The notes under the pieces were generated by a model. The model saw only the letters and a list, made by a program, of their open reading frames with translations. It did no database searches and was not told where the DNA came from. Of a DNA stretch of 64,000 nt, positions 23,860 through 38,772 are shown in pieces. The position numbers and the translations under genes are program-made. The DNA comes from an uncultured Pseudomonadales bacterium (GTDB lineage: Bacteria > Patescibacteriota > Microgenomatia > UBA1400 > PJMF01): contig CAYTIA010000005.1 of the NCBI GenBank assembly GCA_964437755.1, forward strand, positions 802 to 64,801, given 5' to 3'. The first letter of the stretch is position 1; each line of letters starts with the position of its first letter.

Positions 23860-23887
23860 GTGTTTAATCTATCATCTTCTTTAATAC

Positions 23888-23980: not shown

Positions 23981-24238
23981 ATGCCAAATTTTGATCAAAC
24001 AGGACCTACAGGAGCTGGTCCAAGAACTGGTAGAGGAAGAGGGGGTTGCATTTCTGGCTATGGAGTAGGATATGGATATGGATATGGATGTGGGTGTGGC
24101 TGTGGAAGAGGAATGGGAATGGGTCGATTTGTTTCGCCAAAGAATCAACTAATGGCTCTTAAGGAACAGGAAGAGATGCTAACTGAAGAGTTAGAAGTTT
24201 TGAGAGAAGAAATCTCTTCTCTTGAAAAATCAGCTTAG
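23981..24238 (+). CDS. Small Gly/Cys-rich protein with C-terminal coiled-coil (DUF5320-like)
   Basis: MPNFDQTGPTGAGPRTGRGRGGC...GYGYGYGCGCGCGRGMGMGR low-complexity core plus acidic helix LKEQEEMLTEELEVLREEISSLEK. Confidence 0.55.
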   Translation: MPNFDQTGPTGAGPRTGRGRGGCISGYGVGYGYGYGCGCGCGRGMGMGRFVSPKNQLMALKEQEEMLTEELEVLREEISSLEKSA

Positions 24239-24266
24239 AAGATAGGTTTTAATAAGACGAATTTTG

Positions 24267-24300
24267 CCAGCAACACAAAAAGTGTTGCTGGTTTTCTGTT
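24267..24300 (+). terminator. Rho-independent terminator after the DUF5320-like gene
   Basis: Perfect 10-bp stem ccagcaacac/gtgttgctgg with 5-nt loop, followed by TTTTCTGTT. Confidence 0.55.
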
Positions 24301-24325
24301 AGACTAGACCGTATAAAATATACAT

Positions 24326-24610
24326 ATGCCTCGTCCAAGATCACAAAAATCAATACGTTTTAAGCCAAGCGCTACCTTTTTTAAACCGCGTGGAGTGCCA
24401 ATGCGTGATCTTGAGGTGGTGAAGTTATCTCCTGAAGAAGTTGAGGTATTACGTTTAAAAAATATGGAAGATCTTTGCCAGCATGGGTGTGCTTGCCAAA
24501 TGAACACTTCTCAAAGCACTGTGCAGAGGTTGCTCTCTTCAGCGTACTCAAAAATTACTCAAGCCATTATTGAGGGAAAAGCATTAGAGATTGAGGAGAA
24601 GACTATATAA
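24326..24610 (+). CDS. UPF0251/DUF134-like predicted DNA-binding protein
   Basis: N-terminal MPRPRSQKSIRFKP...FFKPRGVPMRDLEVVKLSPEEVEVLRL, then an HTH-like STVQRLLSSAYSKI. Confidence 0.55.
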   Translation: MPRPRSQKSIRFKPSATFFKPRGVPMRDLEVVKLSPEEVEVLRLKNMEDLCQHGCACQMNTSQSTVQRLLSSAYSKITQAIIEGKALEIEEKTI

Positions 24611-24697
24611 ATAATATTTATTAGATATTTATATATCTCAATGTATCTATTGCAGGATAAGGCTGATATCTCAATATAATTTTTTTGCGTGAAAGAT

Positions 24698-24726
24698 TTG
24701 CTTCAAAGTAATAAAAAAGATATAAT
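24698..24726 (+). promoter_or_regulatory. Sigma70-like promoter (-35 TTGCTT, 17 bp, -10 TATAAT) for the giant PP2C gene
   Basis: ttgctt-N17-tataat, 27 nt upstream of the ATG at 24754. Confidence 0.45.
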
Positions 24727-24753
24727 TTTCAGAGTCTTAATTAATTTTTTTAT

Positions 24754-27700
24754 TTGAAAAAAAATATGTCCACAGAAAATTCTCCATCACCAGCATCACA
24801 AAGAGAAAAACTTGCTCATGAAACGCTGGGGCCAGACTTTAAGCCAGCTCCAATATCGGTAACTACTTGGACTGGTGGTCGTGAAGAAAACCAAGATGCA
24901 TTTTTTTCATTTGCAGTTATGCCAGAGTCTTACTATGATCGAGATCTAAATGAAAAAGAAAACTTGAAGGCTTTATCAGCTGCTGGGTATGAGTTGGTGA
25001 TGGTTGCTGACGGTATGGGAGGACATCAGGGTGGTGCAGAGGCTTCAAAAGTATTGACTCAGACAGTAATGAGGGTGTTTGCCGGTGAATTCGCTAGATA
25101 TTATGCTCAAACAACAAATAAGTCTTTAGCGACTGCCTCTCCAGAAGAAATCCAACAGTTTGTTAGAGATAAAATGCCGGTTTATAATTTGAAATCTTTG
25201 CTTAGGTATGCTATTGTTGAGGGCAACAAAAGCATTCAGGGTGTTGCTGGTTATGCAGAAGCTAGCAAAAAACCAGGATCGACTATTGTGGCTTCTTTTT
25301 TTGATCGCAACACAAACAAACATGTAATTGCTAACGTAGGGGATTCAAGAGCTCAGAAGATCACTCAAGGGGGTAAGCTAGAGCAGGTTACTGAAGATCA
25401 TTCAGTGGTTCAAAGATTATTAAAGGCGAAAGTAATTACAGAGGAAGAGGCACAAAGGCATCCAGCACGAAATGAAATATACCGCTCTTTAAATGGTCAA
25501 AAAATTGAAAAACCAGTTGAATATATTGACACTTTCGAAGTTCAGCTTAAACCAGGAGAAGTATTGATCTTGAACTCCGATGGATTAGAGGTCTTATCAA
25601 GAGATGAGATTGAAAAAGTAGTTAAAGAAGCCAAGAAGGATGGTACAACCATAGATCGGGCTTTAGTTGCTGCGGTTGACAGAAAACAACTTTTAGCGCT
25701 TGCCGAAAAAATTGAGTTTTCAGGTTTGCTTACAAGTGAAGAAATCAAAAAAATCTTTGAAGAGAATGCTCATCAAATGAAAAATAGTGAATTAGCGAAG
25801 CTTCTTTTTGAGAAAGTTGAGGAGGCTAGAAGAGAGGCAATTTATCAAGAATTAAGGGCTATTAATGTCCCTGGTTGGGTAAATAAACCTACTTTAGCCG
25901 AAAAGCTAAGAAAGGGAGAGGTTATTGCTGATGCAGTCATAGGTGAAGCACAGCAGTTAGCTAATGAAGGAACCATTGAGAAAAGCGATGTTAACCATTT
26001 ACTAAATGGTAAGAAATTTAGAAAAATCGAAGGCTACAATCATGACAATATTACTGTTATAATTATTGGCGAGGTAAAAAATACTTTTGGAACTGAATTA
26101 ATAAACAGGGCAAAATCTCTTTGGGATTCAGTTATCAATCTCTTCATAGGCAAAGATAAAAAAACTTCACCAGCAACTCCTACTGCTCAATCACCTGAGC
26201 AAGCTGATGCTAAACCAGAAAAAACTGGTTCATTGGCAAAGGTTTGGAAATGGTTAATAAGCTGGAAAGAGAGACGTGCCGCAAAACGATCAGCTGCAGA
26301 AATCAGAACTGCTTCTCAATCTCCAGAAGTGAGTACAGGTTTAACTGTTGAACAATCAATTCAAGCTTTATTGGCAATACTTAAAACACAAGATCGAAAT
26401 TTATTATTAAAGCTAGGGTTAATTAAAAATACACAAGAAGAGGATGATGATTCTGAGGCAGGGGGCTTGGCTGATTTTGTGAATGAGTTAAGTAGGGATC
26501 AAGCTGAGACCATTCAAAACAGAGAAAAAATTACTGATTTAGAAGCAAGAATTGAAGAGAATAGGCAAGCAGAGCGAGATATAGCAACTGAAGTTCATAA
26601 CTACTTAATATCTCTTTATGGTCATAATTATTTAAATCATCTTAGTCAAGATAATCGTGTTTATATAAACAGGTGTAATCAAGATATTCTTGGTATTAGA
26701 GCTATTCGCGCTGATCTCGAAAGAGAACTTGAACAAGCTAGGCAAGAGATGGGTGAAACAGATTCTTCCGTAAAAGAACTTACTATTGATGGTTTAGCAT
26801 TTAATCCAAAACGCAGAAGACAAGTAAAATTAGCTCTAGAAAGAGTGATTTCTAGCAATGAAGATGAAACTAAAGTAGCCAATATTAGAGACGCTTTGCA
26901 AAAGCATTTGCATGCTCTTGAGGCTAGTGCCTGGAAACCATTTGAAAAACTACAGCAGAAACCACTTTTCATGAAGATAAAAGGTATTTTCGAGAAGTTA
27001 AGTGGCTATACAAAAACTCAATGGGAAAATAGACCAAGGACGGTTGCAGAATGGAAAGACAGAGCGAGAGATAAGTCTATCGAGCGTTGGGAAAAACGAA
27101 AAGATAGCTATAACAAAAAGGAGCAAGTTTGGAGAACTAGTCTTAATTTGGAGTCAGTTACCCCAGAAGAATTAACAGCCTGGGAATTAGCACTAAGAAA
27201 AGGTCAGACTCTTGAAGCTAGGCAAGTGGTAGCTTTAGTTCTTGAACAGAGAGTTGGCTCAATTCCAGAGTTGAATAAACATAAAAAAGTTCTTAGAGAA
27301 GCGGGAATTGATTTGCAGCATGATTTAATGGATTGGCTCAGATTCCAGTGGGAGAAAAAGTTAACTGATGAGAGAATTGAGGCTGATGAAAATGTCAGAA
27401 AACTAAAAGAAGCAAAAGCTAACTCCCCTGAAGCAAGAAAAGAACTAAGAAAAGCAATTGTAGCACAGACAGAAGCTTATCTTAAATGGCTTAATTTGAA
27501 GGTTTATGATCATGTTAAAAAATCTGCTATTTTGGAAGCACAACTTGATCGATTTGGCAGACCAAATGCTACGGGCATAGCGAAAGAAGACATTGAAGGA
27601 ACTGGATGGCGGGGTTTGGTTAATAACCTTAAGAGATATATGTCTATGCCAAAGATGACAGCAGGACAAAGAGACGTGGCTTACTACGTCACCTATTTTC

Positions 27701-28833
27701 CATCTATGATTGGATTGCTAACTGCTCCAGGTTTAACTGCAGGAGCAAAAAACGTCATCATGGGAGTAACCTCTGGAGTGAGTGTTGGCGGTGAAGTAAT
27801 TAAACAAAGAATTGAGGCTCAATATGGAGGAGACAGTGAGGCATACTGGGAGAGTTTGCGTGCCAAAGAGGGTTTAAGTAGCAAAGTAATTTTTGCTCTT
27901 CAGAGGATAGCTGTTTCCAAAGCTGTCCAAAGTGTTAGAGATGGTATATCTGGAGGTGCAATGGCAGCTCAGGTCAGCAGTCTTCTTGGATTTGACACTT
28001 TTGCCTATCAGCTAAGAGAAAGTATTGATCGTGCTGCGCAGGGATTGAGTGGAGAACTTCCTGCTGATTTACAGGAGATTGTTGATCAACATCCAGAAAT
28101 TGTTTCTGAAATGGAAGATCTTCAGGCAGAACTCGATAGAGTCACTGAAGAAGCAGCACAACAAGCTGATTCACTTCGAGATGAATTAAGCGACGCTCAA
28201 CAAGCTGCAAAAGATTTGGAAGTGGAACTTGGTGACGCTCAACAAGCTGCAAAAGATTTGGAAGCTGAGCTTGAAAGGAAGGCTCAAGAGTTGCTCAAAG
28301 AGCAAGAAAAAGTAGCAGAGGCTGCCAAAGAAGCTGCTGAGCGTTCAGCTGCTGCTCAAGTAACTGAAGAAGCTGCTGTCGAAGCGGCCAAAGAAGTTAC
28401 TTCTAAGGCAGTTTCTCATTTGCCAGAAGCTCTTGCTGACTATGGTGATCAAGTAGTGCAGATGAAAGGAGGTGATTTTCTAGGAGATGTCTCTGCTTTA
28501 TGGACGGCTAACAGAAACCTTTCGGCTGAACTAGATCCAGCAAATAATGCTAACTCAATGGCGGGGTTTTTAACAAGAGCCTTTAGAGCACTAAACCCAG
28601 GAGTTGATCCAGCCAAACTTGATCCTGAAAAAACTTATAACTTCTTAACTGAAGAAGCAGTTAAAGCCTTGTTGCCAGAAATTAGAGCTGCTGAAAAGGC
28701 TGTTCTTGAAAGAGGTATCCAGAGTCTTGATTTACCTCAGCAATTAATGGCTGCGGGAATCGATGGATTTACTCATCCTACCTTTAATGATGAGCAATTA
28801 GCTTTAGTGTTAGAAACTGTTCTAAATAAATAA
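24754..28833 (+). CDS. Giant (1359 aa) protein: N-terminal PP2C/PPM Ser/Thr phosphatase domain fused to about 900 aa of coiled-coil/low-complexity sequence
   Basis: PPM motifs GGREENQDAF, VADGMGGHQGGAEAS, VIANVGDSRA, ILNSDGL. The remainder is helical and charged, with one hydrophobic stretch (YYVTYFPSMIGLLTAPGLTAGAKNVIMGVTSGVSVGG). Confidence 0.75.
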   Translation: MKKNMSTENSPSPASQREKLAHETLGPDFKPAPISVTTWTGGREENQDAFFSFAVMPESYYDRDLNEKENLKALSAAGYELVMVADGMGGHQGGAEASKVLTQTVMRVFAGEFARYYAQTTNKSLATASPEEIQQFVRDKMPVYNLKSLLRYAIVEGNKSIQGVAGYAEASKKPGSTIVASFFDRNTNKHVIANVGDSRAQKITQGGKLEQVTEDHSVVQRLLKAKVITEEEAQRHPARNEIYRSLNGQKIEKPVEYIDTFEVQLKPGEVLILNSDGLEVLSRDEIEKVVKEAKKDGTTIDRALVAAVDRKQLLALAEKIEFSGLLTSEEIKKIFEENAHQMKNSELAKLLFEKVEEARREAIYQELRAINVPGWVNKPTLAEKLRKGEVIADAVIGEAQQLANEGTIEKSDVNHLLNGKKFRKIEGYNHDNITVIIIGEVKNTFGTELINRAKSLWDSVINLFIGKDKKTSPATPTAQSPEQADAKPEKTGSLAKVWKWLISWKERRAAKRSAAEIRTASQSPEVSTGLTVEQSIQALLAILKTQDRNLLLKLGLIKNTQEEDDDSEAGGLADFVNELSRDQAETIQNREKITDLEARIEENRQAERDIATEVHNYLISLYGHNYLNHLSQDNRVYINRCNQDILGIRAIRADLERELEQARQEMGETDSSVKELTIDGLAFNPKRRRQVKLALERVISSNEDETKVANIRDALQKHLHALEASAWKPFEKLQQKPLFMKIKGIFEKLSGYTKTQWENRPRTVAEWKDRARDKSIERWEKRKDSYNKKEQVWRTSLNLESVTPEELTAWELALRKGQTLEARQVVALVLEQRVGSIPELNKHKKVLREAGIDLQHDLMDWLRFQWEKKLTDERIEADENVRKLKEAKANSPEARKELRKAIVAQTEAYLKWLNLKVYDHVKKSAILEAQLDRFGRPNATGIAKEDIEGTGWRGLVNNLKRYMSMPKMTAGQRDVAYYVTYFPSMIGLLTAPGLTAGAKNVIMGVTSGVSVGGEVIKQRIEAQYGGDSEAYWESLRAKEGLSSKVIFALQRIAVSKAVQSVRDGISGGAMAAQVSSLLGFDTFAYQLRESIDRAAQGLSGELPADLQEIVDQHPEIVSEMEDLQAELDRVTEEAAQQADSLRDELSDAQQAAKDLEVELGDAQQAAKDLEAELERKAQELLKEQEKVAEAAKEAAERSAAAQVTEEAAVEAAKEVTSKAVSHLPEALADYGDQVVQMKGGDFLGDVSALWTANRNLSAELDPANNANSMAGFLTRAFRALNPGVDPAKLDPEKTYNFLTEEAVKALLPEIRAAEKAVLERGIQSLDLPQQLMAAGIDGFTHPTFNDEQLALVLETVLNK
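28192..28275 (+). repeat. Two tandem 42-bp repeats inside the giant CDS (DAQQAAKDLE[V/A]EL[G/E])
   Basis: gacgctcaacaagctgcaaaagatttggaag occurs at 28192 and 28234. Confidence 0.8.
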
Positions 28834-28859
28834 ATACCAATAATTAAATAAAACTGCCT

Positions 28860-29159
28860 ATGTCAAAAATCTCAGATCTAATAAAAATGATGCGGGATGA
28901 TGGAGTTGAGGAGGAAGAAATAACACTTGCTTTGGAAGAAATGACAAAATCAACTGCAATGGAACTATTTACTCATTTATTATCCTTGATCAGCAAAGAT
29001 GAGGCAGAGCTGTTGGATGCAGTTGCAGATGATCAAGAAAGAGTTGATCAGTTAGTTGACGAGATGTATCAAAAGTATGAGGGGAAAACTACAGCACAAG
29101 CTGTTGATGAGATGAACGCTCGTTTTATTGAGGCTTTTTTAGATGGTTACGGCGCTTAA
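28860..29159 (+). CDS. Small acidic hypothetical protein (99 aa) immediately after the giant gene
   Basis: ORF 26 bp after the giant CDS stop; acidic and helical. Confidence 0.35.
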   Translation: MSKISDLIKMMRDDGVEEEEITLALEEMTKSTAMELFTHLLSLISKDEAELLDAVADDQERVDQLVDEMYQKYEGKTTAQAVDEMNARFIEAFLDGYGA

Positions 29160-30085
29160 GCCTTATATTGTCTAATGCTTTTACCAGCTTTTTCAAGGAT
29201 AGTTATTGCGTAGTTGTTTGAGTGTGAATCTTTATAAACTATTTCTTTTATTTCTGTTCGGGCTAACATTCTGCTACAAATGGGGCAAGGCATTAGGTTT
29301 ATATAGAGTGAACAACCTTCGAGTTTTATCTCTCTTTTAGCGGCTTCAAGAATAATTTCTACCTCAGCGTGATTGGTATCATAATAATTTAGATCTTGTG
29401 AGGGAGTTCGATACCTTTCTTTGCTGGCTCCGTGCAGAAGGGCATAGGTTTCAAAGGGCACAATTTTATTGTAAGTAGCTAATAAAAATTGATCGTTTTT
29501 GGTTAAGACAGCACCTGTCTGCCAAGTATTGTCAAAAGAGTAGCTTGCAACTTCATCGACTAATTGAAAAATCTTTTTTTTTGAGCAGTTTTCGCCAAAA
29601 TTTATAGAAAGAGCTGGTCTTGTTTTAAGAATTTTCGCTTCATACTGCAGAGCTTCGGCTTCATCTGCAAAGGCACTCACAAATTTTAATGGAATTTTAA
29701 GTTTCTTGATTGTTTGATATTCCTCTCGATAATGAAAAGCTCGATGCCAAGAGCCATTAATACCAATAACTGCTGACCAGTTATGATTGGCGATGATTGT
29801 CGATATATGAGTTTGAGGATATTCCAAAATATTAATCCTAGAGTTATCAAGTTGTTCTAGGCTTTCTTTAAGTTTTTTTATCGTAAGAGTTCTAAACTGT
29901 GGAGAGTTTTCCAATCCTTTAATAAATTCTTCTGTAAATACTCCCCAAACAATTTTTCTATCAGTATTTTTTAATAATTGACTGGAAAGTTGAATAATTC
30001 TTTCTGAAGAGATTTCTCGAGAACCCAATATTAGGATGGGAGAACTTTCAATCTCACTTAGACCTTGCCATGAAATAATTTTCAT
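29156..30085 (-). CDS. Two-domain protein: unknown N-terminal domain (about 170 aa) plus C-terminal dCMP/CMP deaminase zinc-binding domain
   Basis: HAEVEII ... PCPICSRML (H-A-E / PCxxC cytidine-dCMP deaminase signature). Confidence 0.65.
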   Translation of the reverse strand: MKIISWQGLSEIESSPILILGSREISSERIIQLSSQLLKNTDRKIVWGVFTEEFIKGLENSPQFRTLTIKKLKESLEQLDNSRINILEYPQTHISTIIANHNWSAVIGINGSWHRAFHYREEYQTIKKLKIPLKFVSAFADEAEALQYEAKILKTRPALSINFGENCSKKKIFQLVDEVASYSFDNTWQTGAVLTKNDQFLLATYNKIVPFETYALLHGASKERYRTPSQDLNYYDTNHAEVEIILEAAKREIKLEGCSLYINLMPCPICSRMLARTEIKEIVYKDSHSNNYAITILEKAGKSIRQYKA

Positions 30086-30621
30086 TATTTATTGTTTATT
30101 GAACCACCTTGATATTTTTCTTTGTATCTCTGGAGAGTTTTCTTGATTAATTCCGACTGTTTCTTGTAAAGAGCTATATTTTCGAGCGGAGTATGTTTAA
30201 GCTGTTGATAGTTCCAGCTACAAAGCTCCGGATGATTAAAAGGGATAAACTGTACATGAAGATGATCTGTAACGCTCATTTGGGCTTGTTCACCACCTTC
30301 ACGAATTAAGGTCCACATCCCTCTACAACCATGAATTTTTTTGATTAATTTTTTAGCTAGATAACTGTATTTTCTGATAGTTTCCCATTGAGCTGAAGAC
30401 AATTCTTTGGGCGAACTAATATGCTGACGGGGAATAGCCATTAGCTGTCCGTCGGTATATGGATAAAGATTCACCGTTAAAACGATCTCATTTTCCTCTA
30501 GCAAGATATACTTTTTTTTAAGATCACAAAATACACATTTACCAGTATTTTGCCAGATTTTCTCATACTCTCCAGTCGTCCTGGCATTCTTCTTATACTG
30601 CTGATCCTGTGTGTGATTCAT
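30085..30621 (-). CDS. HIT-superfamily nucleotidyltransferase/phosphorylase of the GalT/Ap4A-phosphorylase branch
   Basis: CxxC (CVFC) followed by HLHVQ (HxHxQ variant of the histidine triad). Confidence 0.6.
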   Translation of the reverse strand: MNHTQDQQYKKNARTTGEYEKIWQNTGKCVFCDLKKKYILLEENEIVLTVNLYPYTDGQLMAIPRQHISSPKELSSAQWETIRKYSYLAKKLIKKIHGCRGMWTLIREGGEQAQMSVTDHLHVQFIPFNHPELCSWNYQQLKHTPLENIALYKKQSELIKKTLQRYKEKYQGGSINNK

Positions 30622-30636
30622 AACAACATTTGTTTA

Positions 30637-31209
30637 TCAACTTGGCAACTTTCCAGAATCGCCTAACGGTCTTTTTGTTTCTCCCATGAAATCTTTTAAA
30701 ATATCATTGAGTTGTGCTGAAGCGCTTTTTTTAAGTATCTGAGTGGTAGAGATAAACGGAGACTGACGATCTACTAGTTCGACTCTGCCTCCATTGTTAA
30801 CAACAGTTTGGTATTCTGGAGAATCTTGATAACCACTGTTCCAGTCTTCTTTAACGGTTACATATACATCTGGTTGGAGTTGATCTAGAGTAGGTTGATT
30901 ACTAAGAGTGGGAACAATTGTAACCAGATCAACGAATCTGAGATAACTAATCATCTCGGCTCTGATCTTTTCATCTAATATGGGGCGATTAGGACCCTTG
31001 AGAGTGCTAACGGTTTGATTGCTACTTACTCCGACTATCAAAACATCAGCTTGCTTTTTTGCCTCAGCTAAATATCTAACTTGGCCGACATGCAACATAT
31101 CCCAGGCACCAGCTGTATAAACTATTGTTTTTTTCTTAGCATGAATAATTTTTCCTGTCTCTTCGATTTTATTTGGAAGAATCAGTCTTCTTTTCCAGTT
31201 AAATGCCAT
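30637..31209 (-). CDS. HxGH-type cytidylyl/adenylyltransferase (TagD/RfaE-domain-II-like)
   Basis: YTAGAWDMLHVGQVRYL (HxGH) plus a downstream ISTT motif region. Confidence 0.65.
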   Translation of the reverse strand: MAFNWKRRLILPNKIEETGKIIHAKKKTIVYTAGAWDMLHVGQVRYLAEAKKQADVLIVGVSSNQTVSTLKGPNRPILDEKIRAEMISYLRFVDLVTIVPTLSNQPTLDQLQPDVYVTVKEDWNSGYQDSPEYQTVVNNGGRVELVDRQSPFISTTQILKKSASAQLNDILKDFMGETKRPLGDSGKLPS

Positions 31210-31240
31210 GTTGTTGTATGTATCTTAATTATTGATAAAA

Positions 31241-31266
31241 AACCAAAAATAACCCGCCAGTGCGGG
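31241..31266 (-). terminator. Rho-independent terminator on the minus strand between the APH-like kinase gene and the cytidylyltransferase gene
   Basis: Minus strand reads CCCGCACUGGCGGG followed by UUAUUUUUGGUUUUUU. Confidence 0.5.
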
Positions 31267-31304
31267 CAGCCTGTTTTCTCTTATTCTAATCATTTATATC
31301 AGGA

Positions 31305-32381
31305 TTAGATGGGTAAAAGCAACCGCTGGTTTCCGTATTTAATAAGATAATCTCTGGTTCTTAAAAAATGTTGGTTTTGATATAGATATTCATAGGGATT
31401 GTGCTTGAAAAACTGGTAGAGGTCAATTAACAAATACATAAAAACCAGTTCTGTGATTAACAAGTGATTAGGTTGAGCAATATTAACTCTTTTTACATAT
31501 CCTGAATCAATAAAATACTTAACAATTTTCTGGGGATTTTTGTTCTTGCAGTCAACAAGTAAAAAAGCTAATGTTCTAGAGATATCAAGCTCTCTTGGAC
31601 CAAGAGCTGCCTTTTCAAAATCTAAAACTCCAGTTACAGCTAGACTTTTATTTGTAACGGTTTTTTGTTCAAGTTTAAGAACGAATTTATCGTCAAAATG
31701 ACAATTTGTAATATTCTTGAATAGAATATTGCCACGCACAAAGTCTAGATGAAGGAGTTGAGACTTTTTATGAGCATTAAGCCACTTTAGAAGCTTAGCG
31801 TACCTTGATAAATAGACTGGGTTTATTCTAAGTTTTAGTTTTTGTTCAATTGCTGTTTGAGTTTCAATATTTGTAAAATAGTTGTTCATTTTTGTCAATT
31901 TTTGTTGAAGATTAGAACATTCTTTGCTAGCTATTATATTTATGTTGTGACTAATTCTTTCTAAATCTTGATGCAGATAACCCAAAACTTGACCCAAAAG
32001 TTTAATGTGTTTTTTGCTATAGCTTTCCCACTCAATAGTGGATCCATCTAGGTAATTGTACAAACAACAAAAAATAGTTTTATCTCTAGTGTGGAGTTTC
32101 AAGATTTCTTGATTGTTGGTTGAGATAGTTTGACGAGTTGGCCAGCCATTATTGGCGAGTTGGTTTGAGATGAGATTGGTGAGCTTAATTTTTTCAAGAA
32201 TTTTTGGTTCTCTTTTGTAAAAAATTAGAGCTAGTTTTTCTGGTTTATCGCCATGAATCTCAATGGGTATTATTGAGTTTCGATAACCAGATTGAGTAGG
32301 TTTAATGGATATATCATTTTGATGATATTCAAACTGTGTTAAAACTCTTTTGATAACAGCTTGGCTTACTTTTGCTGGCAT
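31305..32381 (-). CDS. Protein-kinase-fold small-molecule kinase (APH/choline-kinase/HSK-II-like)
   Basis: Catalytic loop LLHLDFVRGNILF (HxDxxxxN) and VLDFEKAALG (DFx metal-binding). Confidence 0.6.
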   Translation of the reverse strand: MPAKVSQAVIKRVLTQFEYHQNDISIKPTQSGYRNSIIPIEIHGDKPEKLALIFYKREPKILEKIKLTNLISNQLANNGWPTRQTISTNNQEILKLHTRDKTIFCCLYNYLDGSTIEWESYSKKHIKLLGQVLGYLHQDLERISHNINIIASKECSNLQQKLTKMNNYFTNIETQTAIEQKLKLRINPVYLSRYAKLLKWLNAHKKSQLLHLDFVRGNILFKNITNCHFDDKFVLKLEQKTVTNKSLAVTGVLDFEKAALGPRELDISRTLAFLLVDCKNKNPQKIVKYFIDSGYVKRVNIAQPNHLLITELVFMYLLIDLYQFFKHNPYEYLYQNQHFLRTRDYLIKYGNQRLLLPI

Positions 32382-32437
32382 ATTTACTTGATTTTTCTTG
32401 GAGTATAATCTATTTAGTTAGAAATGATAAATAACCT

Positions 32438-33205
32438 ATGAAAATTACTGCAGTTAAAACTCCAGTTGTTAGGGCAGGTGATACTCTTTTTGAACATATT
32501 GCTAATTGTATTCCTTCACTAGAAGAAAAGTCGGTGTTGGTAGTGGTCTCAAAAATTATCAGTTATTCCCAGAATCGACTAATTCCAATCAATGATGGAA
32601 CTCACGAAGAGAAGTATGAGATTGTGAAGCAGGAGGCAGATTTGTATTTACCCAATAGCATTTCTAGATATGACTTGATGTTTACCATTAAAAATGGTCA
32701 TTTAACTGTTAATGCTGGAGTAGATGAGTCAAATGCCAATGACCATTATTTACTATGGCCAACCGATCTTCAGCAAGAGGTTAATAACATCTGGAAATTT
32801 TTACGCGAGCATTATCACCTAAAGAAGGTTGGAGTGATTGTTACTGATAGCAGAACATGGCCGTTACGCTGGGGAGTAGTTGGTACCTGTCTAGCTCACT
32901 GCGGCTTTAAGCAGTTATATGATTACAGGGGGCAACCAGACGTATTTGGCAGAGAGATTCATTTTGTTCAACAAAACATTGCAGAAGCAATGGCTAGTTT
33001 TTCGGTGTTGGAGATGGGTGAGGTGGCTGAACAAACGCCATTGGGAATAATTGAGAATATCAAAAAAATTGAGTTTCAAGATCACGAACCAACACAGCAA
33101 GAATTAGCAGATCTCTTAATCAATATAGATGATGATATGTATGGGCCTTTGCTAACAAGTGTCTCTTGGCAAAAGGGTGGTGGAGGAATTAAGCTTGAGA
33201 GATAA
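32438..33205 (+). CDS. CofE-like (F420-0:gamma-glutamyl ligase family) protein
   Basis: Collinear with archaeal CofE as I remember it: VLVVVSKIISYSQNR, TVNAGVDESNA, KKVGVIVTDSRTWPLRWGVVGTCLAHCGF. Confidence 0.7.
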   Translation: MKITAVKTPVVRAGDTLFEHIANCIPSLEEKSVLVVVSKIISYSQNRLIPINDGTHEEKYEIVKQEADLYLPNSISRYDLMFTIKNGHLTVNAGVDESNANDHYLLWPTDLQQEVNNIWKFLREHYHLKKVGVIVTDSRTWPLRWGVVGTCLAHCGFKQLYDYRGQPDVFGREIHFVQQNIAEAMASFSVLEMGEVAEQTPLGIIENIKKIEFQDHEPTQQELADLLINIDDDMYGPLLTSVSWQKGGGGIKLER

Positions 33206-33207
33206 TC

Positions 33208-33957
33208 ATGATAAAAAAATCGGCTCTCTTATCCTCTCAACTTCTATTTGATGAAGCCAAGAAAATTGGTTTAGATCCTAAATGGGAAACAGATTATGGA
33301 TTATTCTCAGTGAGTCTTAATAACTCTCCGAAGAGGGAGTTCTTTTTTCATTCTAATCTTAATCTTAATGGGGAGTTATCTAGAATTCTAGTTAAGAATA
33401 AACATTTTACACGCCTGATCTTGGAAAAAAATAATTTTGTGAATATTCCGTATATTTTGCCTCGTTCTTCAGAAAAATTACAAGACTTTTTTGAGCAATA
33501 TCAGCCGATTATCTGTAAGCCTCTCTTGGGTCAGAAATCAAAAAGAGTGTATTTAATTAAAACAGTAGAACGTTTACAGAAATGTTCTCTTAAAATGAAT
33601 TTTTTTGAAAAGTATATCGATGGGGAAGAGTGTCGTTATTTAATTTTGCAGAATCAAGTGATTGCTGTGCAAAGAAAAAAACTATCTCCGACAAAAAAGT
33701 ATCCGTGGAATTTACACTACATAGGGGTTGAGAAGTTGCATTGGAATAACGATCTTGTAGAAGAATCTTTACGAATTGCTAACATATTTAATTTACGATG
33801 GGCAGCCGTCGATTTTATTATTGATGCAGCAGGAAAAGCCTGGGTACTTGAAGTAAACTCTTCTCCTGGAATAGTGAAAATCCACAATCCAGATGAGGGA
33901 GTAAGAGTAAATGCGGCGGAGTTGATCTGGAAAGCAATAACTGCTAAATACAATTAA
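33208..33957 (+). CDS. ATP-grasp ligase (RimK/CofF/MptN-like)
   Basis: ICKPLLGQKSKRVYL, EKYIDGEECRYLIL, AAVDFIIDAAGKAWVLEVNSSPG. Confidence 0.7.
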   Translation: MIKKSALLSSQLLFDEAKKIGLDPKWETDYGLFSVSLNNSPKREFFFHSNLNLNGELSRILVKNKHFTRLILEKNNFVNIPYILPRSSEKLQDFFEQYQPIICKPLLGQKSKRVYLIKTVERLQKCSLKMNFFEKYIDGEECRYLILQNQVIAVQRKKLSPTKKYPWNLHYIGVEKLHWNNDLVEESLRIANIFNLRWAAVDFIIDAAGKAWVLEVNSSPGIVKIHNPDEGVRVNAAELIWKAITAKYN

Positions 33958-35243
33958 ATTAGTTTTTCAACCGCTCCTACCAGTTCATCATCATTAAAAT
34001 ATTTAAGTAGTTCTTTTTGCCAATTGGGTACAGAGATATCAACATCAGGATTAACTCCGTTGCTCTCTATAGCAATACCATCAGAGCGAAGTGTTAAATG
34101 ATGAACTAAAAATATTGAGTACTCTTGCGTTTGATTAACCTGATTTTTGATTGGAAAAATGCGCTCTACTGTTCCCCAACCTTTGGTGGTGGTGCCGATC
34201 AGTACTCCTACATTATATTTTTGTAGTACATCAGCCATTACCTCGGCGCTAGATTGCACTTCTTCATCAATCAGTACTACGACTTTTTTATAACGAGCCA
34301 AAGTTGGTAACCAACCGACCTTGGTTTTAAAATCAGTGGTTTTTCCTTGTTGAAGCATTTGGTAAGCGTATTGATTATTGCCGATGAATGGTCCTAAAAA
34401 ATAGGGGAGACCATCAATTGCTCCTCCAATATTACCTCTTAAATCTAGAATTAAGCTAGATAATCGCTCATCCTCTCCATCAACCTTTTGAGTGATTTCT
34501 AGCAGTTCCTCAACGGTTGTAGGTGAAAACTGTTTAATTTTTAAGTAAAAAATTTGAGGAGAAATTAGCCTCCATTCCATAGTAGGATTAACACCAGATT
34601 TATCATAACGCTCACGATTTTCTTGACTTAGTAAAGTTTGCTGAGCTAATTCGAGTTGAGCTAGTTGCTGTTTTGATTCTGGGGTGTCTTCTGTCTGGAG
34701 GAGCTCCTTTTGTTTGTGGTAGGCTTGCTCAACCTCTTCATTGGTGGCTTCAGGATTGACTCCTAGTGATTGATAGTGATCAAGATCGGGATTAATGTTA
34801 CTCACTTTTTCTACAAGTTCTTTTTCAAGCTGTTGTGAGTAAAGTCGGCTACGACCAAATGGTTCTAGGTTAGCTAGAACCAGATCGGCTAATTGGGTTG
34901 TAAACTCTTCCTTGGTAGAATCGTCAGTGTAGTTCTCGAGAATAGCTATAATTTCGTCATCAAGATCTTGATAAGTTTTTATTCTGTCTCCTAGAGGTTG
35001 AGCGACAATCTGTTCTATAGCTTTGACATGCAATCGCACTAAAGCGTCTTCAGAAAAAGAATCCCAGTAGTTTTCTTGAATGATAACCCTAACTTCCTGT
35101 AAAAAGGCTAGGTATTTATTTTCGGGCTCATTGGTTTTTGTAAACCACTCAGATTTATATCTTGAAATAAACAGTCCGCCAGAAATTCCAAAAAGAAAAA
35201 TGACAATAATAAACAGCAGTGATTTGATTTTGCTATTGCGCAT
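33954..35243 (-). CDS. S41 family C-terminal processing peptidase (no PDZ) with an inserted degenerate J-domain-like segment
   Basis: S41 catalytic region LILDLRGNIGG ... VVVLIDEEVQSSAEVMADVL. The segment DHYQSLGVNPEATNEEVEQAYHKQKELLQTEDT...RERYDKSG resembles a DnaJ J-domain but lacks HPD. Confidence 0.7.
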   Translation of the reverse strand: MRNSKIKSLLFIIVIFLFGISGGLFISRYKSEWFTKTNEPENKYLAFLQEVRVIIQENYWDSFSEDALVRLHVKAIEQIVAQPLGDRIKTYQDLDDEIIAILENYTDDSTKEEFTTQLADLVLANLEPFGRSRLYSQQLEKELVEKVSNINPDLDHYQSLGVNPEATNEEVEQAYHKQKELLQTEDTPESKQQLAQLELAQQTLLSQENRERYDKSGVNPTMEWRLISPQIFYLKIKQFSPTTVEELLEITQKVDGEDERLSSLILDLRGNIGGAIDGLPYFLGPFIGNNQYAYQMLQQGKTTDFKTKVGWLPTLARYKKVVVLIDEEVQSSAEVMADVLQKYNVGVLIGTTTKGWGTVERIFPIKNQVNQTQEYSIFLVHHLTLRSDGIAIESNGVNPDVDISVPNWQKELLKYFNDDELVGAVEKLI

Positions 35244-35272
35244 ATAAGATATCTCTACTGTATACTACAGTT

Positions 35273-35854
35273 ATGGAAAATATCCCGCAAGTTTTTATTA
35301 TTGTAGCAACCAGTCTTGATGGATTTATTGCTCAAACAAGAGAGCAGTCATCAGTTAGTTGGGCAAGCAAAGAAGACAATCAGTTTTTCCATCAAAAAAC
35401 AAAAGAGGCAGGGGTGATAGTGATGGGTAGTTCGACATTTAAAACCATTGATCCAAAATATCTGCCTCTTTCTGATCGTCTGAACATTGTTTATACAAAT
35501 TTTTCCAGCGATACTTTAGTAAAAGAACTTGGACTAAACCAAAGAAAGGTTAATCAAAGAAACTTGATGATAACCACTCAACCTCCAAAAGATTTAGTAA
35601 AAGAATTGGGAAAGATGGGCTATAAGCAGGTTGCGATTTGTGGTGGGAGTTCCATTTATACTCAGTTTCTGCAATCAGGGTTAGTAAGCAAAATTTTTGT
35701 TACTGTTGAGCCAGTTATTTTTGGTGATGGCATTAAACTTTTTAATCAGGTAGAAACAAAGAAAATGAAGCTATTGTCTATAAAGCAGCTCAATGATCGA
35801 GGCACATTACAACTTGAATATGAGTTAATCAATGAAAGTCAGAATGAAGGTTAA
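35273..35854 (+). CDS. Dihydrofolate reductase family (RibD C-terminal-like) protein
   Basis: VFIIVATSLDGFIA...GVIVMGSSTFKTI pattern of DHFR/RibD-C proteins. Confidence 0.55.
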   Translation: MENIPQVFIIVATSLDGFIAQTREQSSVSWASKEDNQFFHQKTKEAGVIVMGSSTFKTIDPKYLPLSDRLNIVYTNFSSDTLVKELGLNQRKVNQRNLMITTQPPKDLVKELGKMGYKQVAICGGSSIYTQFLQSGLVSKIFVTVEPVIFGDGIKLFNQVETKKMKLLSIKQLNDRGTLQLEYELINESQNEG

Positions 35855-36275
35855 GATTAAATTGATCAATGACTCTTTACCGGTTCCAGGATATCAGACT
35901 TCTGATTCAGCTGCTTTTGATCTCTATTCTAGACTTGATGTAGAAATTTTGCCTAAGGCTGTTTTTTTGGTGCCTTTAAATGTGATTTTACAGATTCCAA
36001 AAAATCATTGGGTTTTGATGGCAGCTCGAAGCAGTCTGCATAAAAAAGGTTTAATGTTGATTAATGGTATCGGGGTTGGAGATTATGATTATCAGGGAGA
36101 AAATGATGAATACCATGCGGCCTTATTTAACTTTTCTGATCAAACAGTCAAACTCAAAAAAGGCGACAGACTGGTTCAGGCAATTGTGTTGCCAAGAGAA
36201 AAAGTTGAGTTTTCAAAAATAGATGTTATTGCCGAGAATGATAAAAGCAGAGGAGGATTTGGTTCCACAGGTTAA
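35832..36275 (+). CDS. dut: dUTP diphosphatase
   Basis: Trimeric dUTPase motifs: SAAFDLYS, ARSSL, GVGDYDYQGE, C-terminal RGGFGSTG. Confidence 0.85.
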   Translation: MKVRMKVKIKLINDSLPVPGYQTSDSAAFDLYSRLDVEILPKAVFLVPLNVILQIPKNHWVLMAARSSLHKKGLMLINGIGVGDYDYQGENDEYHAALFNFSDQTVKLKKGDRLVQAIVLPREKVEFSKIDVIAENDKSRGGFGSTG

Positions 36276-36405
36276 AAAGCTGGATAAACTTTTTTGTTAT
36301 TCATATGTAAGTATTTTTTGCTCTTGAATAATAAATATGGATTGTTTATATTGGTTTTCAGTCTGCCCATCACTCGTTATTTCTTAATTAAATGAGAGGT
36401 CTTCT

Positions 36406-38079
36406 TTGAAAAAAACAGAGGTGGGATCGTATTTACCTCCTGACATTATTAAAGAGGGAGATTGCCAAGTTTTAATTGACGTTGGTTCTTCATCCACGAA
36501 ATTATACTTGGAGTGTGAAGGTAAAATATTAGGGGATAAAGATGACTGGGTTTATGTTAATAAAGAGGTTATTGATGTTGGGGGTCAGCAGGCAAGGGTA
36601 ATTCGTCCCGATGATCTTCAGCAGTACATTGAAACAATATCTCAGTTTAGTGCTTCAAGATATATTCTAACAAGCCTATTACACAGTTTGGTGGTGGTTG
36701 CCAATACTCAGCAAGGAGAGGTGGCAGTAGCTTTTATGTGTGATCCCAATTTTGAGCCTGACTGGCGAGAAGATAGAGTTTCGCAATTATTGGCTAGTAG
36801 AACCGAGTTTGCAGAGTCGGTGCAAAATATGTCAAGATCCTGGCTTCATAAATTAGTTGCCTTGCTTCAAAACTATTCAGCTATTGCCCAGGAACTAGAA
36901 TTGCCAGAAGATCCTGCTGACATTTCATTAGTTACGACTATTCCAGGTTATATTATCTTAAAATTAAGGGGGGATGATGAGGGGTTTATACCAGGAAATG
37001 AGCCAAAAATTCCTGATTTATCAATCGAGTTTATTCAAGATCTATTGGTTGAATTTGGCTTCCCGATAAACTCCATCATGCAGTTGTTAGATACACTAGT
37101 CATTGAGGGAAATGGAGATAAGCCAGAAGTAGCAACTTATAGTGACACTACAGCTGAAATGTTGGCAATTCAAAAAATTGTTCAACATTTTCAAGCCCAA
37201 GCGGTTGTAATTTCAACAGATTCAGTTTACAAAGCTATTGTTATTTCTGATAAACCAATTGAGGGTTTAAAAAACAGTGTTGATGGAGTTTATTATAGTA
37301 GTGCCAGAACTGGTTTTGGTAATCTTTGTGGAGTAGTTTTACTACCCCTACTTGAAAATAAAGAAGATTTTTTAGGTCTTCGCATTAAACTGAATATTTA
37401 TGAACTAGTTGATGAGTTTATTCAAAAATCATTTGATGAGGGGTTGCTAGATAACTTTAATCCTGATTATCATTTTTTTGCTTGTGAGTCTGGAGATTAT
37501 TTGTGCGTAGATCATGAGGGTAATCAGATCGATTATAAACGGGAGGCTCAAAGGCTAGTTGATCAAAATAATGTTGACCAATATCGAAACCTAGTTTTAT
37601 CTGTAATTTTAGGTTCTGCGTTCTCATTAAGACAAAAATCAGATTACGTTTATCATCAAACTTACAGAAATGATGAGTGGCAGGGTCAGTCAGCTGATAC
37701 AGTTGTTTACTATGGTGGCTTTTTACAGCACTCAGTCAGGGGTGATGGTAAGATTGGCGGGGGAATAACGAGATTGTTTATTGGGACTCATGATAAACAT
37801 ACCAGTGTTATGATGACTCCACTTTATACTGCAGCTGAAGCAGCCTCAATAGTTGGGGCAAATGACACAGAGGCTGAAGAAACAATGCTTGAGCGTTATC
37901 AACCAACTATGATAGATAGAAAAACAGGAATTTTTTCAACTCAATACCAAGAGTGGCACAGACAAGTAAAAAGAAATATAGATCAAGGTGTTCTATTAGC
38001 TACATCTTTAGGAGGAGTGGAGCTAAATAAATTCGTTGACAACACTATGGCGGGGTATGATCAGAAGCACAATAATTAG
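36406..38079 (+). CDS. Hypothetical 557-aa protein, possible ASKHA (actin/Ppx-GppA-like) ATPase fold
   Basis: TTG start; N-terminal VLIDVGSSSTKLYL resembles the phosphate-1 loop of sugar-kinase/Ppx-GppA proteins; the rest is uncharacterised. Confidence 0.35.
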   Translation: MKKTEVGSYLPPDIIKEGDCQVLIDVGSSSTKLYLECEGKILGDKDDWVYVNKEVIDVGGQQARVIRPDDLQQYIETISQFSASRYILTSLLHSLVVVANTQQGEVAVAFMCDPNFEPDWREDRVSQLLASRTEFAESVQNMSRSWLHKLVALLQNYSAIAQELELPEDPADISLVTTIPGYIILKLRGDDEGFIPGNEPKIPDLSIEFIQDLLVEFGFPINSIMQLLDTLVIEGNGDKPEVATYSDTTAEMLAIQKIVQHFQAQAVVISTDSVYKAIVISDKPIEGLKNSVDGVYYSSARTGFGNLCGVVLLPLLENKEDFLGLRIKLNIYELVDEFIQKSFDEGLLDNFNPDYHFFACESGDYLCVDHEGNQIDYKREAQRLVDQNNVDQYRNLVLSVILGSAFSLRQKSDYVYHQTYRNDEWQGQSADTVVYYGGFLQHSVRGDGKIGGGITRLFIGTHDKHTSVMMTPLYTAAEAASIVGANDTEAEETMLERYQPTMIDRKTGIFSTQYQEWHRQVKRNIDQGVLLATSLGGVELNKFVDNTMAGYDQKHNN

Positions 38080-38127
38080 ATAAATTTTCCGTTATACTTC
38101 ATTTATTAAAAGTAACAGTTAATTTTT

Positions 38128-38772
38128 ATGACAGATAACAAACAATCAGGTTTTTTAATAACTCTTGAGGGAGGTGAGGGAGGAGGAAAGTCTACTCAAT
38201 CAGTGAGATTGAGGCAGAAGCTTTCTGAAGAAGGAAGGGATGTAGTTGTTTTGCGAGAGCCCGGTGGTACAGCCATCAGCGAACAGATTCGCCAAGTTGT
38301 TTTATCTCCAACCAATACCAGCATGGCTTTTACCACTGAGGTTTTACTGTTTCAGGCTGCCCGTGCACAAATTTATCGAGAAATAGTTATTCCATCATTA
38401 AAAGCTGGCAAGGTGGTAATCATGGATCGCTCGCGTGACAGCAGCGTTGTCTATCAGGGTATGGTGAGAGGGTTTGGCAAGGAGTTAATTAATAATCTTA
38501 ATGATTTATCTACCGATAAAACTCTTCCCAATCTAACTATTTTACTAGATCTTCCAGTTGCTATGGGTTTACAACGAAGAGAGGAATCAGGAAAAATTGA
38601 TAGACTCGATATGGAGGCACAAGACTTTCATCAAAAAGTCAGAGATGCTTATTTAGAGTTGGCAAGGGAGGATAAAACGAACAGGTGGGTGATTGTTGAT
38701 GCTCAGAAAACTGTTGATGAGGTAGAATTAGAAATTTGGCAGGAAATTAATAAAAGGGTTTTTGGTAACTGA
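38128..38772 (+). CDS. tmk: Thymidylate kinase
   Basis: FLITLEGGEGGGKST P-loop; LID region with RSRD. Confidence 0.85.
   Translation: MTDNKQSGFLITLEGGEGGGKSTQSVRLRQKLSEEGRDVVVLREPGGTAISEQIRQVVLSPTNTSMAFTTEVLLFQAARAQIYREIVIPSLKAGKVVIMDRSRDSSVVYQGMVRGFGKELINNLNDLSTDKTLPNLTILLDLPVAMGLQRREESGKIDRLDMEAQDFHQKVRDAYLELAREDKTNRWVIVDAQKTVDEVELEIWQEINKRVFGN

Follow-up and report, generated by a model that had tools for sequence, protein, structure and literature searches.

The window, by which we mean the whole 64,000-nucleotide stretch of DNA analysed here, carries two adjacent plus-strand genes for predicted ligases, one CofE-like and one of the ATP-grasp type. They are divided by a short divergent spacer from a minus-strand kinase gene and share the window with the following genes and features:

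2986-3975, minus strand: Fmt-like formyltransferase, beside peptide deformylase (PF00551, E 1e-20)
23062-23859, minus strand: thymidylate synthase ThyA (PF00303, 379 bits; NF002497, 388 bits, passing the cutoff of 327)
29156-30085, minus strand: dCMP-deaminase-family protein with an N-terminal extension of ~165 aa (PF00383, E 4e-13, residues 170-284 only)
30085-30621, minus strand: HIT protein (Pfam; PDB matches to Ap4A-phosphorylase-like entries)
30637-31209, minus strand: ECT/CCT-like cytidylyltransferase (PDB match to ethanolamine-phosphate cytidylyltransferase 3elb, E 2e-18)
31305-32381, minus strand: APH-like kinase (Pfam; no PDB match)
32382-32437, no strand: divergent intergenic region of 56 bp, with the kinase gene starting at 32381 on its other side
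32438-33205, plus strand: CofE-fold gamma-glutamate ligase, FolC2-like, 255 aa
33208-33957, plus strand: short carboxylate-amine ligase of the ATP-grasp type, 249 aa, from an uncharacterised family and probably in one operon with the CofE-like gene
35273-35854, plus strand: dihydrofolate reductase (DHFR) of the Thermotoga maritima type, RibD_C/DHFR_1 (PF01872, E 5e-22; PF00186, E 6e-12)
35832-36275, plus strand: dUTPase (PF00692, E 3e-22; TIGR00576, 106.6 bits, passing the cutoff of 102.55)
38128-38772, plus strand: thymidylate kinase Tmk (PF02223, E 2e-44; TIGR00041, 168 bits, passing the cutoff of 83)

The CofE-like gene ends in a TAA stop at 33203-33205, followed by 'tc' and the ATG of the ATP-grasp gene at 33208, which leaves a gap of 2 bp between two genes that have no further same-strand partner. 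The blocks VVVSKIISY, NAGVDESNA and GVIVTDSRTWPLRWGVVG were all located in the CofE-like translation; these blocks, the open reading frame coordinates, the gap and the spacer are all as an earlier sequence-only reading of this DNA had described them. Direct reading of the spacer shows a perfect TATAAT at 32404-32409 on the plus strand, 28 nt ahead of the CofE-like ATG. We treat it as a putative promoter only, because a consensus scan of positions 32200-34200 yielded no promoter above shuffled expectation; the terminator-like matches from the same scan fall within coding sequence.

Membership of the CofE family, as proposed from the sequence alone, is confirmed by PF01996 (E 3e-34) and by a Foldseek search with the structure model of the 255-residue protein, for which CofE of A. 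fulgidus (Af-CofE) was the sole match (TM 0.74-0.77). The narrower identity with CofE, for which a comparison against profile models had been suggested as a check, did not hold: all four CofE/FbiB equivalog cutoffs were missed, among them TIGR01916 (113.2 bits, cutoff 180.65), NF009809 (111.6 bits, cutoff 274) and NF009810 (89.3 bits, cutoff 304). The best model was the FolC2-type TIGR04132, a hypothetical-equivalog model with the name 'putative folate metabolism gamma-glutamate ligase', which was covered over its full length (1-241 of 241) at 245.4 bits, a lead of more than 130 bits over other models. This score is under the model's cutoff of 350 and therefore places the protein formally outside the family, in a separate, large Patescibacteria clade; by sequence it is closest to the FolC2/TIGR04132 family yet outside its trusted set. 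Ten further clade members, including the N-terminal half of a natural fusion protein described below, gave 236-275 bits with TIGR04132 versus 103-127 bits with TIGR01916 and were likewise under the CofE equivalog cutoffs. Public sources name homologs 'putative folate metabolism gamma-glutamate ligase' or 'dihydrofolate synthase/folylpolyglutamate synthase', and some databases call them CofE.

The catalytic residues D96, S98, N99, D137, S138, G194 and E195 align with D109, S111, N112, D150, T151, G207 and E208 of Af-CofE and are invariant in the clade, as are the NAG-D-SN, TD(S/T) and MGE motif columns. The protein thus keeps the fold and motifs of CofE and of the FbiB N-terminal domain (2PHN, 7ULD) and presumably shares their chemistry, nucleotide-dependent addition of a gamma-linked glutamate, but its identity to them is 24-25% and it differs in the residues that hold the head group. 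In Af-CofE the deazaflavin head group is contacted by F92, G153-C155 and R234 of the partner subunit (PMC10861534). The position of F92 is a deletion in 15 of 15 clade sequences; G153-R154-C155 stand opposite T/S, W/F/I/L and an invariant P; R158 stands opposite an invariant W; and R234 falls outside the region alignable to CofE, where the C-terminal segment of the CofE-like protein does not align. K45 of Af-CofE is opposite Y43 of the window protein in both phmmer and MAFFT alignments. As aligned, the F420 head-group contacts are lost in the CofE-like protein, with the catalytic motifs intact.

A precedent for folate as the acceptor is CT611/FolC2 of Chlamydia trachomatis, a member of the COG1478/CofE family able to complement a folC mutant of E. 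coli (PMC1971073, PMC4161248), its function being supported by genetic complementation only. The sequence-only reading had missed this precedent, while its proposal that the acceptor is something other than F420 is upheld. The window protein resembles FolC2 in its single-domain CofE fold of ~250 aa, in its best end-to-end model, in its occurrence in reduced-genome bacteria with F420 genes undetected, and in its clustering with folate-pathway genes. It differs in its TIGR04132 score and its clade, and in lying with ThyA, DHFR, dUTPase and Tmk, whereas the Chlamydia gene is clustered with fol genes of the de novo pathway, folB and folKP; it differs also in the ATP-grasp partner, which is present in one subclade, that of the window, and fused in one lineage, and of which the FolC2 literature searched makes no mention. 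On these comparisons, the CofE-like gene most likely encodes a FolC2-type rather than an F420 enzyme.

ThyA, DHFR and the Fmt-like protein are makers or users of folate in the same window. ThyA uses 5,10-methylene-THF and produces DHF, and Fmt is a user of 10-formyl-THF. DHFR is encoded 2 kb downstream of the CofE-like gene and has T. maritima DHFR (1cz3) as its best PDB match (E 4.7e-28, residues 7-185), and the best NCBIfam model for the Fmt-like protein is TIGR00460 fmt, at 147.6 bits and under the cutoff of 201.5. No Mur-ligase-type FolC is encoded in the window. The sequence-only reading had the divergent arrangement on the kinase side right but overlooked ThyA, DHFR, dUTPase, Tmk and Fmt.

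The 249-residue partner has an ATP-grasp fold with an intact ATP/Mg2+ site. The earlier RimK-type assignment was correct. The RimK Pfam domain starts at residue 69, and the N-terminal domain is reduced. It scores below cutoff against CofF TIGR04443 (30.7 bits, cutoff 300), MptN NF040720 (42.9 bits, cutoff 350), rimK_fam TIGR00768 (53 bits, cutoff 143.4) and NF007764 (20.7 bits, cutoff 331), and far under the cutoffs of the RimK, Ddl and remaining equivalog models. The claim that the two genes form the exact pairing known from methanogens therefore fails as stated; because the ATP-grasp protein lies outside the CofF, MptN and RimK equivalogs, the correspondence is a functional analogy and not family-level homology. 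The protein belongs to a small family of its own, with ~60 representatives, a sharp boundary and a median length of ~245 aa versus 310-330 aa in the next-best ATP-grasp families, and no description of it was found in the literature searched. Nearest to it in fold are ArgX, LysX and RimK, together with the G-domain of cyanophycin synthetase, each of which extends the C-terminal carboxylate of a glutamyl or peptide substrate; Ddl and RiPP ligases are also among the neighbours. The window protein differs from RimK, LysX and ArgX in sequence (11-18% identity), and there is no LysW-like carrier gene near the pair.

CofF, which acts on gamma-F420-2, and MptN, which acts on H4MPT, are alpha-L-glutamate ligases, and MyfB is a methylofuran polyglutamate ligase; all three are RimK/GshB-type ATP-grasps that add glutamate to the acidic tails of C1 or redox cofactors, tails begun by another enzyme. 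The window ATP-grasp is similarly paired with a gamma-glutamyl ligase, but is ~40-50 aa shorter than these enzymes of about 290-300 aa. Alpha-linked distal glutamates have been reported in E. coli folates, and a folylpoly-alpha-glutamate synthetase activity was described from an E. coli enzyme preparation (Ferone et al. 1986, cited in PMC1971073). As cited there, the reaction is like the one we propose below, alpha-linked glutamates being added to the distal part of a gamma-glutamyl folate tail, but it is a biochemical activity without a sequence for comparison.

We think it somewhat probable, taking both genes together, that the CofE-like protein is a FolC2-type folate glutamate ligase and that the ATP-grasp protein is an accessory ligase acting on the same tail. 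The 255-residue enzyme would be a folate:L-glutamate gamma-ligase and a non-orthologous replacement for FolC, placing gamma-linked glutamate on folate that is probably salvaged rather than supplied de novo. Glutamylation would retain the cofactor in the cell, in a form that Fmt and the enzymes of the ThyA/DHFR cycle use well. The ATP-grasp ligase, if co-transcribed as the layout suggests, would probably work on the glutamyl tail in the manner of CofF, MptN, MyfB and the E. coli folate activity, most plausibly capping or extending it with an alpha-linked glutamate or another amino acid; its substrate, amino-acid specificity and linkage are predictions from these analogues. The folate half of this proposal is already known in kind, and what is new lies in the ATP-grasp partner. 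That the partner gene is the first known to encode a ligase capping the folate tail through an alpha linkage is possible but, in our estimate, doubtful.

Across related loci, the CofE-like gene is followed on its own strand, after 0-75 bp, by an ATP-grasp gene in seven of the nine groups with at least 60% identity (the window's clade) and in none of the 46 groups below 60% identity. The view of the pair as a unit, taken in the sequence-only reading, holds for most groups of that clade and does not extend to most CofE-like relatives, which have no ATP-grasp. A clean open reading frame of 510 aa (P0171, locus L099, positions 2999-4531), known from one 6.4-kb contig, fuses a CofE-like domain to an ATP-grasp of the same family, in a distant lineage and in a different context block (UvrB/LexA). 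The ATP-grasp protein is an accessory partner of the CofE-like gene. A related-locus search with the ATP-grasp alignment reached six genomes only, and a further word-indexed protein search found four more distant homologs and no others; these share 29-41% identity, none is near any CofE-like gene, and their contigs (L097, L098 and L009) have no common partner.

An alternative interpretation, which we regard as unlikely though the most serious of those considered, is that the CofE-like protein is of the FolC2 type and the ATP-grasp is functionally unrelated to it, perhaps a protein glutamylase resembling RimK, a cell-wall ligase resembling Ddl or a peptide ligase, with an adjacency that reflects synteny inherited within one Microgenomates clade. 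The confinement of the ATP-grasp to one subclade, its absence at the syntenic loci L024 and L027, the distant family members without a CofE-like gene, and the presence of Ddl and RiPP ligases among its structural neighbours are all consistent with this, but the natural fusion in a distant lineage and another context, the 2-bp gap to the only available same-strand partner, and the low RimK, Ddl and other equivalog scores argue against it. The window also holds a ribosomal protein S6 gene whose product is Glu-terminal, a point for this alternative; however, this gene is 21 kb away and its product ends in ...VVRE, without an acidic Glu-Glu tail, and RimK/S6 modification was set aside on those grounds.

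The FolC2-type reading draws on the neighbourhood of the CofE-like gene, for which counts were made over 71 dereplicated loci (groups) obtained by unbiased clustering, with recurrent neighbours surveyed over 97 loci. DHFR is the commonest neighbour (18-19 of 71 groups; 9 of 28 when only groups flanked by 5 kb or more on each side are counted) and the gene most often abutting the CofE-like gene on the same strand, at no more than 150 bp in 7 groups from several tree branches. In 14 groups a ThyA gene is no more than 10 kb away. ThyA, DHFR, dUTPase, dCMP deaminase and Tmk form a conserved thymidylate/folate cluster around the CofE-like gene, the dCMP-deaminase-family gene being kept in it across related loci. 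Neither DHFR nor ThyA occurs within 10 kb in 18 of the 28 well-flanked groups, and many clade members are placed instead in a UvrB/PIG-L/LexA block that is functionally uninformative. Since a cytidylyltransferase-like gene (16-17 of 71 groups) and the dCMP-deaminase gene are nearly as frequent as DHFR, the context is more direct evidence of a thymidylate cluster than of a link to folate.

That frequency also lends something to a second alternative, that the pair glutamylates a non-folate acceptor, possibly the product of the divergent kinase, ECT-like cytidylyltransferase and HIT genes, by a tail logic like that of F420. Within the clade of the window these three genes stay beside the CofE-like gene; the kinase gene lies divergently within 150 bp in 7 groups, and a cytidylyltransferase gene is so placed in 3 more. 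The score under the TIGR04132 cutoff would also fit, as would the fact that the segments that would hold the head group are low-confidence parts of the structure model. We nevertheless consider a non-folate acceptor quite unlikely: three loci (L058, L034 and L036) keep the cytidylyltransferase-deaminase-CofE-like-DHFR arrangement with kinase and HIT missing, DHFR is the most frequent same-strand abutting gene, the characterised relative acts on folate, and neither CofC nor CofD is a homolog of the kinase, the cytidylyltransferase or the HIT protein. We caution against reading these three genes as more than context, their joint action with the pair being putative. In a variant that we hold to be highly improbable, the five genes flanking the spacer (kinase, cytidylyltransferase, HIT, CofE-like and ATP-grasp) would build a new non-folate glutamylated molecule, an alcohol or acid being phosphorylated, converted to a CDP derivative, transferred and then given gamma- and alpha-linked glutamates, in convergence with F420 tail logic.

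Both proteins could also act on folate with the labour divided otherwise, the ATP-grasp adding the first glutamate (as a DHFS-like enzyme) or a non-glutamate residue and the CofE-like protein elongating. Coupling is evident from the fusion and the adjacency, which do not reveal the order of action, and the ATP-grasps MyfA and MfnD place the first glutamate on the aromatic amines of furan cofactors. We consider this division very unlikely, as the ATP-grasp is missing from every group below 60% identity and CT611 alone complements folC; because most clade members lack the ATP-grasp and CT611 needs no partner in that assay, the CofE-like enzyme seems sufficient for the essential steps. Ordinary F420 biosynthesis, with a CofE and a CofF-like cap, would account for the PF01996 match, the CofE fold and the CofE names in some databases, but has almost no credibility against the missed equivalog cutoffs, the lost head-group contacts, the absence of CofC, CofD, CofG/H and F420-dependent oxidoreductases from a Pfam scan of essentially all window open reading frames of at least 90 aa (as the sequence-only reading had noted), the absence of cof/fbi genes and F420-dependent enzymes among neighbours that recur across the 97 loci, and a review's list of F420-encoding bacterial phyla that does not mention Patescibacteria. 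Thymidine hypermodification by a ThyA-like hydroxymethylase, a kinase and amino-acid ligases was rejected because ThyA passes the thymidylate synthase equivalog, and is further disfavoured by the co-occurrence of ThyA with DHFR, an enzyme for which a hydroxymethylase would have no use.

Genomes of the candidate phyla radiation (CPR) commonly keep folA, glyA and folD with most cofactor biosynthesis missing, and Patescibacteria likewise still encode enzymes that use folate, ThyA and DHFR among them. No description of how Patescibacteria retain or tailor scavenged folate was found in the searchable CPR literature. A FolC2-type ligase inside the thymidylate cluster, if the folate reading is right, would supply the missing retention step. 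The label 'coenzyme F420 ligase', widely used in the phylum and wrongly suggestive of F420 metabolism, would then be corrected. To our knowledge, non-gamma additions to folylpolyglutamates are known only biochemically, and we know of no gene assigned to the E. coli folylpoly-alpha-glutamate synthetase. Should the ATP-grasp modify the folate tail, it would provide a gene for such additions and represent a reuse of CofE and CofF logic for folate. For tests of the tail hypothesis, the natural fusion conveniently places both domains on one polypeptide.

Judged by its profile scores, the CofE-like protein appears nearest to the FolC2 family (typified by Chlamydia CT611, a CofE-family protein that complements an E. 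coli folC mutant; PMC1971073, PMC4161248) yet beyond that family's trusted set. Both open reading frames of the sequence-only reading are present, with 2 bases between the CofE-like stop and the ATP-grasp start (TAA-tc-ATG) and a 56-bp spacer separating the CofE-like gene from the divergent kinase gene, and Pfam upheld both of its domain assignments.

2986-3975: Fmt-like formyltransferase, adjoining peptide deformylase
23062-23859: ThyA, 388 bits (equivalog cutoff 327)
30085-32381, minus strand: trio of APH-like kinase, cytidylyltransferase and HIT protein
32438-33205, plus strand: CofE-like gene, 255 aa, PF01996 at E 3e-34 (Pfam)
33208-33957, plus strand: ATP-grasp gene, 249 aa, RimK ATP-grasp domain at E 9e-14 (Pfam)
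35273-35854: DHFR, PDB top match Thermotoga maritima DHFR (E 4.7e-28, full length)

Pfam searches of essentially all window ORFs of at least 90 aa found no CofC, CofD, CofG/H or F420-dependent enzymes, as the earlier reading had also reported for F420 genes. The top NCBIfam model for the CofE-like protein was not CofE but TIGR04132, 'putative folate metabolism gamma-glutamate ligase' (245 bits, 1-241/241), while the CofE and FbiB equivalogs gave 89-113 bits, each under its cutoff. Scores of 236-275 bits with TIGR04132, versus 103-127 with the CofE model TIGR01916, were obtained for nine relatives spread over the clade and for the N-terminal half of a fusion protein. The placement outside the trusted FolC2 set follows from the TIGR04132 cutoff of 350, which exceeds the score of the CofE-like protein. 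Public labels of its homologs are of three kinds: CofE, 'putative folate metabolism gamma-glutamate ligase' and 'dihydrofolate synthase / folylpolyglutamate synthase'. The CofE-like half of the pair is most likely a new member of an already known kind, the FolC2 type; the initial proposal of a glutamylated cofactor other than F420 pointed in the right direction but missed both this known answer and the folate genes of the window.

The folate-requiring enzymes encoded in the window are ThyA, the Fmt-like protein and DHFR, and its thymidylate cluster is completed by dUTPase, a dCMP-deaminase-family protein and Tmk. Related loci were fetched (n = 99), and the 97 sources with a CofE-like gene, the window among them, were analysed as 71 groups dereplicated at 90% identity. 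When clustered without the window's own seeds, the commonest neighbour of the CofE-like gene was DHFR (19 of 71 groups), followed by a cytidylyltransferase-like protein (17), dCMP deaminase (16), Tmk (15) and ThyA (14); in 7 groups DHFR lies on the same strand within 150 bp. Linkage to DHFR or ThyA occurs on at least five branches of a neighbour-joining tree built without bootstrap support. In a genome of ~1 Mb, a gene has a chance of ~2% of falling no more than 10 kb from a given second gene; the neighbour enrichment is therefore real, although the loci are not phylogenetically independent. A UvrB/PIG-L/LexA block, which is uninformative, surrounds the gene in a large part of the clade.

Among the nine groups with at least 60% CofE-like identity and enough flank, seven carry the ATP-grasp gene 0-75 bp 3' of the CofE-like gene on the same strand, and none of the 46 groups under 60% identity has it alongside. 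The gene is cleanly missing from an otherwise syntenic locus (L024), and the ATP-grasp protein is therefore an accessory partner. No CofE-like neighbour was found beside more distant ATP-grasp homologs (29-41% identity). Incidental adjacency of an unrelated ATP-grasp enzyme is unlikely, being weakened by P0171, a 510-aa protein that joins PF01996 (residues 8-205) to a window-type ATP-grasp (residues 267-504) in a single unbroken ORF without Ns; this fusion is known from one contig, L099. Identity to the window proteins is 51% in the CofE half and 38% in the ATP-grasp half, and P0171 sits in the UvrB/LexA context, grouping with that distant clade in the neighbour-joining tree. The strongest evidence for joint action of both enzymes is that their genes adjoin in one lineage and are fused in another. 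We found no description of this partnership or fusion in the searchable literature, and they are the new element relative to the known FolC2 type.

A word-indexed search returned only 24 clusters for the ATP-grasp protein; when 1.84 billion representatives were searched exhaustively with a profile, ~60 matched at E ≤ 1e-30, nearly all ~245 aa. Beyond these, scores fall to ~100 bits, the level of ordinary ATP-grasps of 310-330 aa, and the family is thus small, with a sharp boundary. A close relative occurs in only 6 of ~185,000 species genomes, and the window protein falls far under every cutoff of the CofF, MptN, RimK and Ddl models.

P0166 (392 aa) fuses a weak NUDIX domain (residues 21-120, E 2.7e-4) to a window-type ATP-grasp. 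In L006 (7544-8011) the CofE-like gene begins inside a NUDIX gene, and in L063 a NUDIX gene lies 11 bp upstream of it. FolQ, a folate-pathway enzyme, belongs to the Nudix hydrolases. In a 57%-identity relative (L005, 7343-7993 / 3235-4197), a Vut_1 (PF02592) vitamin/queuosine-precursor-type transporter gene is directly upstream of the CofE-like gene, and the HIT protein of the same locus carries a fused NUDIX domain.

A non-folate acceptor, perhaps tied to the divergent trio, is decidedly unlikely in our assessment. Within the window's clade the trio is kept beside the CofE-like gene, and the closest PDB match of its cytidylyltransferase, 3elb (E 2e-18), is human ethanolamine-phosphate cytidylyltransferase. 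The HIT protein is Ap4A-phosphorylase-like, a PDB search found no homolog of the kinase, and kinase and cytidylyltransferase together resemble a Kennedy-type CDP-alcohol pathway.

In the folate reading that we prefer, the CofE-like enzyme would attach gamma-glutamate to folate, which would retain scavenged folate and tune the cofactor for ThyA, DHFR and Fmt. The genes folA, glyA and folD are typically retained in CPR genomes, from which cofactor biosynthesis is otherwise missing (PMC11974145). The ATP-grasp enzyme would next work on the same folate tail and, by analogy, may add an alpha-linked glutamate; we infer acceptor, amino acid and linkage alike. CofF puts a terminal alpha-Glu on F420 (PMC8498797), methanopterin and methylofuran are the targets of MptN and MyfB (PMC8141765), and the folates of E. 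coli are reported to carry distal alpha-linked glutamates (Ferone 1986, as cited in PMC1971073). That both enzymes act on folate with a different division of labour is very unlikely.

The AlphaFold model of the CofE-like protein (pLDDT 78) matched only A. fulgidus CofE (Af-CofE) structures in the PDB (TM 0.74-0.77, identity 24-25%). Residues D96, S98 and N99 (NAG-D-SN), D137 and S138 (TD-S), and G194 and E195 (MGE) align with Af-CofE D109, S111 and N112, D150 and T151, and G207 and E208, respectively, and are invariant in the clade. The F420 chromophore contacts, which in Af-CofE are F92, G153-C155 and partner-subunit R234 (PMC10861534), are absent from the CofE-like protein: F92 falls in a deletion in 15/15 clade sequences, the positions of G153, R154 and C155 are taken by T/S, a hydrophobic residue and an invariant proline, and an invariant tryptophan stands opposite R158. 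No part of the C-terminal segment aligns to CofE, yet TIGR04132 covers it, and the two low-confidence stretches of the model (140-147 and 232-255) are the segments of altered head-group contacts. The catalytic machinery is therefore kept and the head-group pocket different. F420 synthesis by the pair is extremely improbable.

The span 23062-38772, with ThyA, a long dCMP-deaminase-family protein, DHFR, dUTPase and Tmk, then RecR, forms a thymidylate 'supercluster' that is conserved. Its synteny holds until the CofE-like marker falls to ~57% identity, and it recurs, rearranged, on several CPR branches; some lineages keep only the cytidylyltransferase of the trio, beside the deaminase. The deaminase-family protein (29156-30085, minus strand; 309 aa) has its deaminase domain at residues 170-284 only, its N-terminal ~165 aa matching no Pfam family, and the long form (311-322 aa) is kept in related loci. 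An S41 C-terminal-processing peptidase (33954-35243, minus strand), convergent with the ATP-grasp gene and overlapping its 3' end by 4 bp, embeds a DnaJ J-domain at residues 155-214, a combination also kept in L002, L005, L008 and L010. In the 1359-aa protein at 24754-28833 (plus strand), the sole match is a weak N-terminal one to PP2C phosphatase (residues 75-284), and the remainder is long, charged and coiled-coil-like; it occurs in only four loci overall, with a 1336-aa counterpart in L002 (a 90% relative). Between dUTPase and Tmk, a 557-aa ORF (36406-38079, plus strand) matches no Pfam or NCBIfam family and occurs in only 5 related loci. Histidyl-tRNA synthetase (60438-62369, minus strand; 643 aa) has its synthetase domains from ~residue 239, after ~240 aa with no family match.

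Salvage-type genes dispersed in the window, including 45929-47029 (minus strand), 53624-54406 (plus) and 49651-50678 (plus), fit a scavenging lifestyle; among the window's genes of this type, tRNA-guanine transglycosylase scores 274 bits, where the bacterial Tgt model requires 307, and purine nucleoside phosphorylase exceeds its model cutoff; a second HIT protein and two neighbouring NUDIX hydrolases are also present. Five GenBank TPA MAG contigs, L011-L013, L015 and L016 (CAZQWI01, CAYXBZ01, CAZTBN01, CAZCXA01 and CAZSQY01), are titled 'uncultured Pseudomonadales bacterium'; these labels look wrong. In gene order the five match Woesebacteria/Microgenomates contigs, with which they share the CPR gene cluster.
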